A stretch of 1,160 nucleotides of DNA from Escherichia coli (lineage in GTDB: Bacteria; Pseudomonadota; Gammaproteobacteria; Enterobacterales; Enterobacteriaceae), in NCBI RefSeq assembly GCF_003334335.1, contig NZ_QOWQ01000119.1, one strand, 5' to 3'. Under the pieces are notes generated by a model that saw only the letters and a program-made list of their open reading frames with translations, was not told the DNA's origin and ran no database searches. Made by a program: the position numbers and the translations under genes. Positions 1 through 1,160 of the stretch are shown here, one piece after another (the stretch's first letter is position 1; each line of letters starts with the position of its first letter).

Positions 1-201
1 CCATCAGAGCAGGCGTATCGCGTATGGCGTAAGACACCGGAGAAGGCTGCTGACCCGACACTGATTCGAAAGTTACCTGACGGAGAAATACGTCGTTACA
101 ACAGACGGCAGAACATAATTTGTCGTGAGAGCAGGAGGAGCGAAGTTATGCAGCGTGTGCTGGCGTTCTATCGGGGAAACTTTCAGGAGGTGATGGAGTG
201 A
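1..201 (+). CDS. 3' end of an upstream gene (C-terminal 66 codons in window, ...SEVMQRVLAFYRGNFQEVME*); product not recognised, presumed phage early protein
   Basis: Frame 1 is open from position 1 to a TGA stop at 199..201, while the other two + frames hit stops at 30..32 and 62..64. The stop overlaps the GTG start of the next gene (GTGA at 198..201). It is absent from the ORF track only because its start lies outside the window. I do not recognise the protein family. Confidence 0.55.
   Translation, partial: PSEQAYRVWRKTPEKAADPTLIRKLPDGEIRRYNRRQNIICRESRRSEVMQRVLAFYRGNFQEVME
185..190 (+). promoter_or_regulatory. Shine-Dalgarno (AGGAGG) for the DUF4406-like gene, embedded in the 3' end of the upstream gene
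   Basis: AGGAGG at 185..190 lies 7 nt upstream of the GTG at 198, which is near-optimal spacing. Confidence 0.7.
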
Positions 202-500
202 GGGTGAGAGTCTATATCGCCGGTCCAATGACCGGGTATAAAAATTTCAACCGTGAGGCGTTTCACAATGCGGAAGAGGTACTGAAACGGGAAGGGCATA
301 CCGTTTTAAACCCGGCAGTACTTCCGGACGGGCTGACTCAACCACACTACATGGATATTTGCATGGCAATGCTCCGTTGCGTGGATGCGGTTTACATGCT
401 GAAAGGCTGGCAGCAGTCGGCAGGTGCAAGGGCTGAGCTGGCACTGGCGGAGAAACTGGGCCATGCGGTGATTTTTCAGGAGGTGGGCAGTGAATATTGA
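198..500 (+). CDS. DUF4406 family protein (nucleoside 2-deoxyribosyltransferase-like fold), 100 aa, GTG start
   Basis: The N-terminus MRVRVYIAGPMTG...NFNREAF...GHTVLNP matches the signature I associate with DUF4406 / NDT-like small phage proteins (beta-strand, then a glycine-rich AGPMTG loop, then an aromatic FN..AF motif). The ORF is complete with a strong SD upstream, and the family normally begins right at the YIAGPMTG motif, which supports GTG 198 over the internal ATG at 228. Confidence 0.85.
   Translation: MRVRVYIAGPMTGYKNFNREAFHNAEEVLKREGHTVLNPAVLPDGLTQPHYMDICMAMLRCVDAVYMLKGWQQSAGARAELALAEKLGHAVIFQEVGSEY
478..483 (+). promoter_or_regulatory. Shine-Dalgarno (AGGAGG) for the small membrane-protein gene, embedded in the 3' end of the DUF4406-like gene
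   Basis: AGGAGG at 478..483 lies 6 nt upstream of the GTG at 490. Confidence 0.6.
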
Positions 501-729
501 CCCGGCGATAACGATTGATATGGCCCTGAACACCGGCCTGGCACTTCTTGGTTATTTCTACATCATGTTCTGCAGCGGACGATGGCTGTCACTGTTGTTC
601 ATGAAAAAATGGAATAAACGCCGTAAGCAGGAGCAACGCCAGAAGGCAATGGATGCATTTTCGAAGCCTTCGGAATTGACGGCATGGAACCAGGGGATCC
701 AGCTCGCGCAATCAGCAGAGGGGGTGTAG
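490..729 (+). CDS. Small predicted membrane protein, 79 aa: one hydrophobic helix followed by a polybasic segment; function unknown
   Basis: The ORF starts at GTG 490 with AGGAGG 6 nt upstream and overlaps the previous gene by 11 nt (previous stop 498..500); an in-frame ATG at 520 is an alternative start. Residues ~12-37 (ALNTGLALLGYFYIMFCSGRWLSLLF) are hydrophobic, immediately followed by KKWNKRRKQEQRQK, consistent with an N-out/C-in single-pass topology by the positive-inside rule. It ends in a tandem stop, TAG 727..729 then TAA 730..732. No family recognised. Confidence 0.6.
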   Translation: MNIDPAITIDMALNTGLALLGYFYIMFCSGRWLSLLFMKKWNKRRKQEQRQKAMDAFSKPSELTAWNQGIQLAQSAEGV

Positions 730-759
730 TAATCCTTGTATATCGGAGTGAAGAGAAAA

Positions 760-1074
760 ATGACGATCACAAAACAACGAGTAGAAAAAATCATATATCG
801 CCATGAAATGGGACTGAACAGCGATGTCACTGCCGAAGAGGTTTATGACCTGGCTGTACTGGCGCTGAATTTATCAAATATCGCAAACCTGAAGCGATAC
901 GAGCTTGATATGGATGGTTGCGACTCGTGCGGTCAGGATTGTGGCGCAGATATGACTGAAGATCCTGATGGTGATTATGTCCTGTTTGATGACGTGGTTA
1001 AGTTGTTTGAATTTGATACAACCACTCAAAAGTTAGAAATCCCGGCAAAGGAGGCAGCCAGTGAGCAAGATTGA
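760..1074 (+). CDS. Hypothetical small acidic protein, 104 aa, with a C-x2-C-x3-C cluster; function unknown
   Basis: ATG at 760 is preceded by a purine-rich stretch (GGAG 745..748, GAAGAG 750..755), and the ORF runs to TGA 1072..1074. By hand count it has about 24 Asp/Glu against 9 Lys/Arg. Cysteines sit at residues 54, 57 and 61 (nt 919..942). The track's TTG 736 start has no SD and is less likely. Confidence 0.7.
   Translation: MTITKQRVEKIIYRHEMGLNSDVTAEEVYDLAVLALNLSNIANLKRYELDMDGCDSCGQDCGADMTEDPDGDYVLFDDVVKLFEFDTTTQKLEIPAKEAASEQD
1046..1052 (+). promoter_or_regulatory. Shine-Dalgarno (AAGGAGG) for the downstream partial gene, embedded in the 3' end of the acidic-protein gene
   Basis: AAGGAGG at 1046..1052 lies 8 nt upstream of the GTG at 1061. 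Confidence 0.7.
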
Positions 1075-1160
1075 CTATCAGGCACTGCGTGAAAAGGCAG
1101 AGAAAGCAACTAAAGGAAGCTACATCGTAGGGCATACATCTGTTAACCAGCACGGCAATT
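1061..1160 (+). CDS. 5' end of a gene, likely ead/Ea22-like family prophage protein (N-terminal 33 codons in window, VSKIDYQALREKAEKATKGSYIVGHTSVNQHGN...)
   Basis: GTG 1061 has a strong SD 8 nt upstream, and the frame stays open to the window end. It overlaps the previous gene by 14 nt in a different frame. The N-terminal pattern (short leader, then QALRE-AEKAT) resembles what I recall of ead/Ea22-like proteins in E. coli prophages; this is from memory and not verified. Confidence 0.55.
   Translation, partial: MSKIDYQALREKAEKATKGSYIVGHTSVNQHGN

Follow-up and report, generated by a model that had tools for sequence, protein, structure and literature searches.

Gene content of the window and of the source prophage

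The window, which is the whole stretch of 1,160 nucleotides that was analysed, is 100% identical to positions 3371777–3372936 of NZ_LR134079.1 (E. coli NCTC9112), on the minus strand, and a script check confirmed that it corresponds to positions 15001–16160 of the annotated 31-kb NCTC9112 neighbourhood (L001). Its last ORF opens at GTG 1061 in the ORF list and runs past the end of the window. The features of the window, in its own coordinates, are as follows:

1–201, plus strand: 3' end of a DUF977-family gene (PGAP, L001 14809–15201; frame read from the sequence; stop TGA at 199–201)
198–500, plus strand: DUF4406 gene, 100 aa (ORF list; PGAP name; PHROG 355)
490–806, plus strand: DUF4752 gene, annotated by PGAP as "frameshifted" (PHROG 667, E 5e-26)
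760–1074, plus strand: hypothetical gene, 104 aa, directly upstream of the Ea22-like gene (PGAP WP_001300189.1; PHROG 3126, E 3.7e-64)
1048–1054, plus strand: Shine-Dalgarno sequence AAGGAGG of the Ea22-like gene, 6 nt before the GTG (read from the sequence)
1061–1160, plus strand: first 33 codons of an ead/Ea22-like gene (ORF list, annotation, Pfam, alignments)
1061–1092, plus strand: conserved N-terminal island MSKIDYQALRE, also the apparent mosaic joint (megablast ends; DNA conservation)

At full length in NCTC9112, the Ea22-like gene occupies L001 16061–16609 and encodes 182 aa (WP_033805601.1), with the RefSeq name "ead/Ea22-like family protein". Its GTG overlaps the stop of the preceding ORF (TGA 1072–1074) by 14 nt, and its Shine-Dalgarno sequence is carried by the last codons of the PHROG 3126 gene; the same AAGGAGG is kept in three further loci (L002, L004 and L006), all with the same upstream gene. 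The DUF4406 protein matches PHROG 355, "nucleoside 2-deoxyribosyltransferase", with an E-value of 2.3e-47, and its GTG start overlaps the DUF977 stop (GTGA). The DUF977 gene is itself the last member of a replication-proximal block, and in all surveyed loci with core markers it lies behind DUF1627 and the replication genes on the rightward strand.

The NCTC9112 neighbourhood holds a complete-looking lambdoid prophage adjoining yccA and annotated from int to terminase, and the genes flanking the window are phage genes, as the first-pass annotation had supposed. No tRNA was found between yccA and int using ARAGORN. The leftward strand carries int, a DUF4224 xis-like gene, a 2.5-kb RecE-like exonuclease gene, DUF1482, dicB, DUF1391, relBE and a small hypothetical gene. 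The annotated landmarks used to orient the Ea22-like gene are:

L001 5621–6640, opposite to the Ea22-like gene: int
L001 6618–6860, opposite to the Ea22-like gene: DUF4224 xis-like gene
L001 6928–9399, opposite to the Ea22-like gene: RecE-like exonuclease gene
L001 11761, plus strand: cro-like gene
L001 20171, plus strand: RusA gene
L001 20539, plus strand: DUF1133 Q-like gene

The leftward genes int, xis-like, exonuclease, DUF1482, dicB and DUF1391 lie 5.5–10 kb from the Ea22-like gene, across a divergent immunity region in which the gap between leftward and rightward genes is ~100 bp. The relBE toxin-antitoxin pair (L001 10787–11266) belongs to the leftward arm and borders the immunity region, and phage PhiR5_1 carries a HipA-like pair at the analogous place (L003 3431–5004).

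Rightward of the immunity region, a first block consists of a cro-like regulator, YdaT, DUF1376 (O-like), replication protein P, DUF1627 and DUF977. It is followed by a cassette of DUF4406, the frameshifted DUF4752, PHROG 3126, the Ea22-like gene, a frameshifted gene and DUF551 fragments, and then by a third block of hokD, DUF968, RusA, DUF1133 (Q-like), a methyltransferase, three tRNAs, lysis genes and terminase. The Ea22-like gene thus runs in the direction of the cro-like and replication genes, which precede it, and lies upstream of the RusA resolvase and Q-like genes. It occupies a pR-type, nin-like position between the replication genes and Q, and the source prophage has a Rac-like layout (the K-12 Rac reference being intR-xisR-recT-recE-kilR, racR, ydaS-T-U-V-W). 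The same arrangement as in NCTC9112, with the leftward genes on the opposite strand, was observed in O111:H11 8D, JE86-ST05 (L005) and O157:H7 493/89.

In lambda, the nin region is made up of accessory genes that lie between P and Q and are transcribed rightward. The cassette described here is its positional equivalent, being likewise a set of tightly packed, overlapping, small, non-essential rightward genes, bounded by the replication genes on one side and by a Holliday-junction resolvase and the Q antiterminator on the other. The content, however, differs, with ren and ninA-I in lambda and DUF1627, DUF977, DUF4406, DUF4752, PHROG 3126, Ea22, DUF551, hokD and DUF968 here. As the cassette lies between the replication genes and Q, the small genes upstream of the Ea22-like gene are to be read as nin-type accessory genes; the earlier reading of them as accessory functions of a lambdoid prophage thus stands, but their assignment to a pL or exo-xis region does not. 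The exonuclease and xis-like genes are only 67 bp apart (L001 6860–6928), so the source prophage is without an exo-xis accessory region, and families of the lambda-type exo-xis region (Ea22 and possibly DUF551) sit instead between P and Q. An Ea22-family gene in the rightward early operon of a Rac-like lambdoid prophage is, with high confidence, the explanation of the locus.

The Ea22-like protein and its conserved ends

Bases 1061–1160 are the 5' end of an intact Ea22-family gene. Residues 2–151 of the protein align with positions 1–139 of the 139-position Pfam model PF13935 (Ead_Ea22; E 2.7e-37, score 128.9), and even the 33 residues encoded in the window match positions 1–31 of that model on their own (E 5.3e-7, score 30.7), as well as PHROG 6389 (E 3e-21), 368 and 250. 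The identification first made from the N-terminal motif is borne out by this end-to-end Pfam match, by homology to lambda Ea22 and P22 EaD, and by the RefSeq name. The BLASTP comparison of the full-length ORF that had been proposed as a check gave 84% identity to lambda Ea22 over 45 aa (aa 78–122, E 2e-23), plus the terminal GIRIKGE, and 80% identity to P22 EaD over 40 aa (aa 83–122, E 6e-18). This homology to the founding members falls in a central coiled-coil block (LLDERERNQQYIKRRDQENEDIALTVGKLRVELE) encoded outside the window.

The motif itself is a true family signature. It has the form M-S-x-I-[DN]-x-Q-x-L-R-E, present here as MSKIDYQALRE, and none of M1, I4, Q7, L9, R10 and E11 varies among eight aligned members, including lambda Ea22, P22 EaD and VT2-Sakai orf9, that were found by BLAST and not through the motif. 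The C-terminus, also outside the window, is GIRIKGE and so has the K/R-G-E ending noted for all Ea22 proteins by Dydecka et al. (PMC7093339). Using tblastn, 375 phage records matched the protein, the best match being a PhiR5_1 gene annotated as Ea22 (96% identity, full length), with Stx phages at ~90–97% identity over residues 1–118/122. No NCBIfam model matched any of the five window proteins, so Pfam is evidently the source of the PGAP name. RefSeq already lists the gene by its family name, and previous studies of the family exist for lambda and Stx phages. Tandem Ea22-family genes were seen at two loci (L029 near 10795 and L072 near 10630), joined by a stop/start overlap, ATGA, with the second gene beginning MSNIDKQ or MSEINYQ.

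An AlphaFold (AF2) monomer model, built on 51 family sequences, has a mean pLDDT of 78, rising above 90 for residues 71–130. Its elements are:

residues 6–15: helix
residues 21–55: three strands
residues 63–75: helix
residues 78–156: long helix
residues 166–177: short helix

This agrees with the architecture published for Stx-phage Ea22, in which one N-terminal helix and three strands are followed by a coiled coil (PMC7093339). Foldseek of the model against the PDB returned no match with E < 1, so the fold gives no clue to mechanism, and a PDB sequence search with the full protein returned nothing at E ≤ 1. From homology and the model, the protein would be a modular oligomer, with a small alpha/beta N-terminal domain of the Stx-phage type (residues 1–75), a long coiled-coil helix (78–156) bearing the block common to lambda Ea22 and P22 EaD, and a short C-terminal helical part with KGE at its end.

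[quoted passage not shown] They are, however, longer (257 aa in VT2-Sakai) and have another C-terminal part, and the gene here differs in following PHROG 3126 in a rightward operon. Lambda Ea22, the founding PF13935 member, has the same length of 182 aa and a similar motif, MSEINSQALRE, with the 84% identity falling on aa 34–78 of the lambda protein and the last seven residues being identical. It lacks the ~45-residue beta-strand insert of the N-terminal domain, and its gene lies between orf73 and ea8.5 in the exo-xis region. P22 EaD shares the N-terminal MSNIDKQALRE, the central 40 residues and the KGE end, but the rest of its sequence is unrelated and its gene, ead, lies in the pL "ea" region between abc2 and xis/int. 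The dimeric C-terminal domain of lambda Ea22 that was solved by NMR (PMC10834534) is not homologous to the C-terminus here, as no BLAST or PDB sequence match was found beyond GIRIKGE.

Deletion of ea22 in lambda and Phi24B lowers lysogeny and raises burst size or phage yield (PMC7093339), and the full-length lambda protein forms tetramers, its dimeric C-terminal domain being separable (PMC10834534; PMC8614690). By analogy, the Ea22-like protein would nudge the lysis-lysogeny decision towards lysogeny by engaging a partner protein. This bias via a putative partner is the weakest step of the proposal and is put forward tentatively, as rather less probable than its opposite; the pro-lysogenic phenotype was measured on proteins with other C-terminal domains, expressed from pL (PMC7093339). 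The gene is presumably non-essential, as ea22 was in a CRISPRi screen of lambda (PMC10695390). PADLOC models of defense families gave no match for Ea22, its downstream neighbor, PHROG 3126 or DUF4406.

The two conserved ends of the gene may also be considered at the level of DNA. Megablast matches end at position 1092, the 11th codon of Ea22, both for PhiR49_2 (509–1092) and for many O157:H7 chromosomes (195–1092), and the same first 33 nt are conserved behind two unrelated upstream genes, either TraR/orf73 or PHROG 3126. Mean pairwise DNA identity is 88% in these 33 nt vs. 50% in the next 60 nt, although the IMG/VR loci were retrieved through an N-terminal peptide pattern, which inflates apparent conservation. 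Positions 1061–1092 thus look like a mosaic recombination joint inside the coding sequence. At the other end, just outside the window (L001 16598–16613), the K-G-E codons AAA GGA GAG (AAAGGAGAG) form a Shine-Dalgarno sequence. From 54 family ORFs in L002–L091, 39 ending in K/R-G-x were drawn, and in 36 of these an ATG-initiated ORF of at least 40 codons follows at −4 to +8 nt, mostly +1, and the coupled ORFs have ten or more distinct N-termini downstream; both an ATG and an ORF were needed for a count of coupling, a looser count being inflated by the GTG inside GAGTGA. The K/R-G-E motif has been described as of unknown significance (PMC7093339), and a Shine-Dalgarno role would offer a simple explanation for it.

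This suggests an alternative, in which the conserved ends matter mainly at the level of DNA and translation, as junctions of portable modules: codons 1–11 would serve as a recombination joint, the final AAAGGAGAG the Shine-Dalgarno sequence of the next gene, and the recognized N-terminal motif would mark a mosaic boundary more than a protein function. The breakpoints, the shared 33 nt, the fall in identity and the coupled ORFs all point this way, and the alternative comes close to an even chance. A protein-level role is, however, compatible with the same data, the N-terminal helix being modeled at pLDDT 87–88, and lambda is an exception in keeping KGE without a coupled downstream ORF. The wider proposal, that Ea22-family genes are relocatable cassettes with two conserved ends acting as junctions for DNA and translation and not as motifs of the protein, falls somewhat short of an even chance. 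If it were true, the 11-codon joint would let the gene body be swapped and the gene move between pL and pR operons, whilst K/R-G-E would couple the translation of whichever gene sits downstream. The term "exo-xis gene" would then be a lambda-centric label for genes that would work, in many prophages of E. coli, from the rightward operon, where they would possibly be timed differently relative to the lysis-lysogeny decision.

Operon structure and prophage decay

Five small co-oriented genes (DUF977, DUF4406, DUF4752, PHROG 3126 and Ea22) form a run with successive overlaps of 4, 11, 47 and 14 nt, in which the Ea22-like gene comes fifth and the Shine-Dalgarno sequence of each start lies inside the preceding gene. 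There is no room for separate promoters within this run. Nothing obvious separates the replication genes from the cassette in a promoter and terminator scan that was not enriched over shuffled sequence. In the same scan, a promoter-like site lies before the cro-like gene (L001 11698–11727), with counts no higher than in shuffled sequence, and the only convincing plus-strand terminator comes after hokD, with no strong one before L001 18730, again without enrichment over shuffles. Transcription of the Ea22-like gene would therefore be expected from a pR-type promoter beside the cro-like gene, after induction or infection, and its translation would be coupled to that of its neighbors.

The DUF4752 gene has four T at 658–661 where intact relatives (O157:H7 493/89, O111:H11 8D and PhiR49_2) have five in the DNA alignment, a 1-nt deletion. 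Strain JE86-ST05, which was sequenced independently, carries the same lesion, so it is probably real and not a sequencing error. As DUF4752 and the gene directly downstream of Ea22 are frameshifted and DUF551 is broken, the operon may be silent through prophage decay around the Ea22-like gene.

It could be argued from this damage that the Ea22-like gene is a functionless relic in a cryptic, decaying prophage, intact by chance and neither expressed nor selected. Besides the two frameshifts and the split DUF551 gene, YdfR is truncated, and in JE86-ST05 the corresponding Ea22 gene is itself truncated. This seems improbable, however, as the Ea22-like ORF is complete, with its Shine-Dalgarno sequence and all family islands, and shares 96–98% identity with copies found in the complete genome deposited for phage PhiR5_1 and in prophage contigs of IMG/VR, and the annotation shows the remainder of the prophage (int, replication, Q-like, lysis and terminase genes) as intact. 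The preferred reading remains that of an Ea22-family gene in a rightward early operon.

Ea22 genes in the leftward and rightward arms

The first-pass annotation had placed the window in a pL region between the recombination genes and the integration module, and had named exo/bet/gam, xis/int and kil/cIII homologs as the neighbors to look for. The int, xis-like, exonuclease and dicB genes were found, but all on the strand opposite to the Ea22-like gene and beyond the immunity region. Whilst Ea22 genes do lie in the pL operon between recombination genes and xis/int in lambda, P22, VT2-Sakai, PhiR5_1 (with its 96% identical protein) and PhiR49_2, as well as in 40 of the 65 classifiable IMG/VR loci, and ea22 is treated as an exo-xis gene in the literature (PMC10834534; PMC8614690), it is extremely improbable that the gene here does so too, as in the sole 100% match the replication genes lie upstream of it and int, xis, exonuclease and dicB are on the other strand, the near-identical relatives examined all agree with a pR placement, and the window starts in DUF977 and contains DUF4406, both of which accompany rightward replication genes in every classifiable surveyed locus.

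How general the rightward placement is was surveyed in 80 IMG/VR loci with genes for Ea22 relatives; the loci are not independent of one another and were collected via an N-terminal peptide pattern. In these, 62 marker proteins taken from annotated loci were located by tblastn, and each locus was classed by the strand of its core markers relative to Ea22. The core leftward markers were int, xis, exo, bet, gam, erf, abc2, recE, kil, cIII, N, ral, dicB and others, and the core rightward markers were cro, cII, YdaT, O, P, DnaC, DUF1627, DUF977, DUF968, RusA, Q and others. Markers of the ea type and TraR were dropped; with them, nine loci scored as "mixed", because these markers are themselves mobile. 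The core-marker classes (n = 80) were:

pL-oriented: 40 loci
pR-oriented: 24 loci
no core marker: 15 loci
conflict: 1 locus (L067)

With 40 pL-oriented against 24 pR-oriented loci, the Ea22 gene alone does not tell which arm it lies in. The earlier inference from an Ea22 gene to a pL location is valid for lambda, P22, VT2-Sakai, PhiR5_1 and PhiR49_2, in which Ea22 occupies the classical site between the recombination genes and xis/int, but it is not general. The neighbors are more informative: all classifiable loci in which DUF4406 precedes Ea22 by no more than 2 kb, or in which DUF977 lies upstream, were pR-oriented, L067 being scored as a conflict. Two loci with 98% identical full-length proteins (L012 and L013) are pR-oriented, with the gene order of NCTC9112. 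In PhiR49_2, on the other hand, the sub-cassette of DUF4752, PHROG 3126 and the start of Ea22 sits in the pL position. The Ea22 family, and even the DUF4752/PHROG 3126/Ea22 sub-cassette, can be found in either arm, in each case following the direction of local transcription.

In addition to its exo-xis Ea22 (orf9), VT2-Sakai holds a second, truncated copy of the module, made up of a TraR-like gene, a DUF4752-like gene and an Ea22 N-terminus (orf79–77; L010 1214–1921, equal to 59022–59729). This copy lies past the tail genes, at the record's far end, and the attachment site separates it from int. An unannotated Ea22-like ORF, 63% identical over 99% of the query, was also found in a P1-like phage-plasmid (MH422554.1, 80848–81285), and E. 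coli plasmids contain 128 places that match parts of the window. Lambdoid prophages are thus not the only carriers of the family.

The main use of these findings is as a correction, in that an Ea22-like gene does not mark the early-left arm of a lambdoid prophage. Rac-like prophages, which are common in E. coli (including O157:H7 and O111), have Ea22, along with the small genes that accompany it, placed between the replication genes and Q, and the many pR-located copies in EHEC prophages deserve inclusion in work on the reported restraint of Stx-phage lytic development by Ea22.
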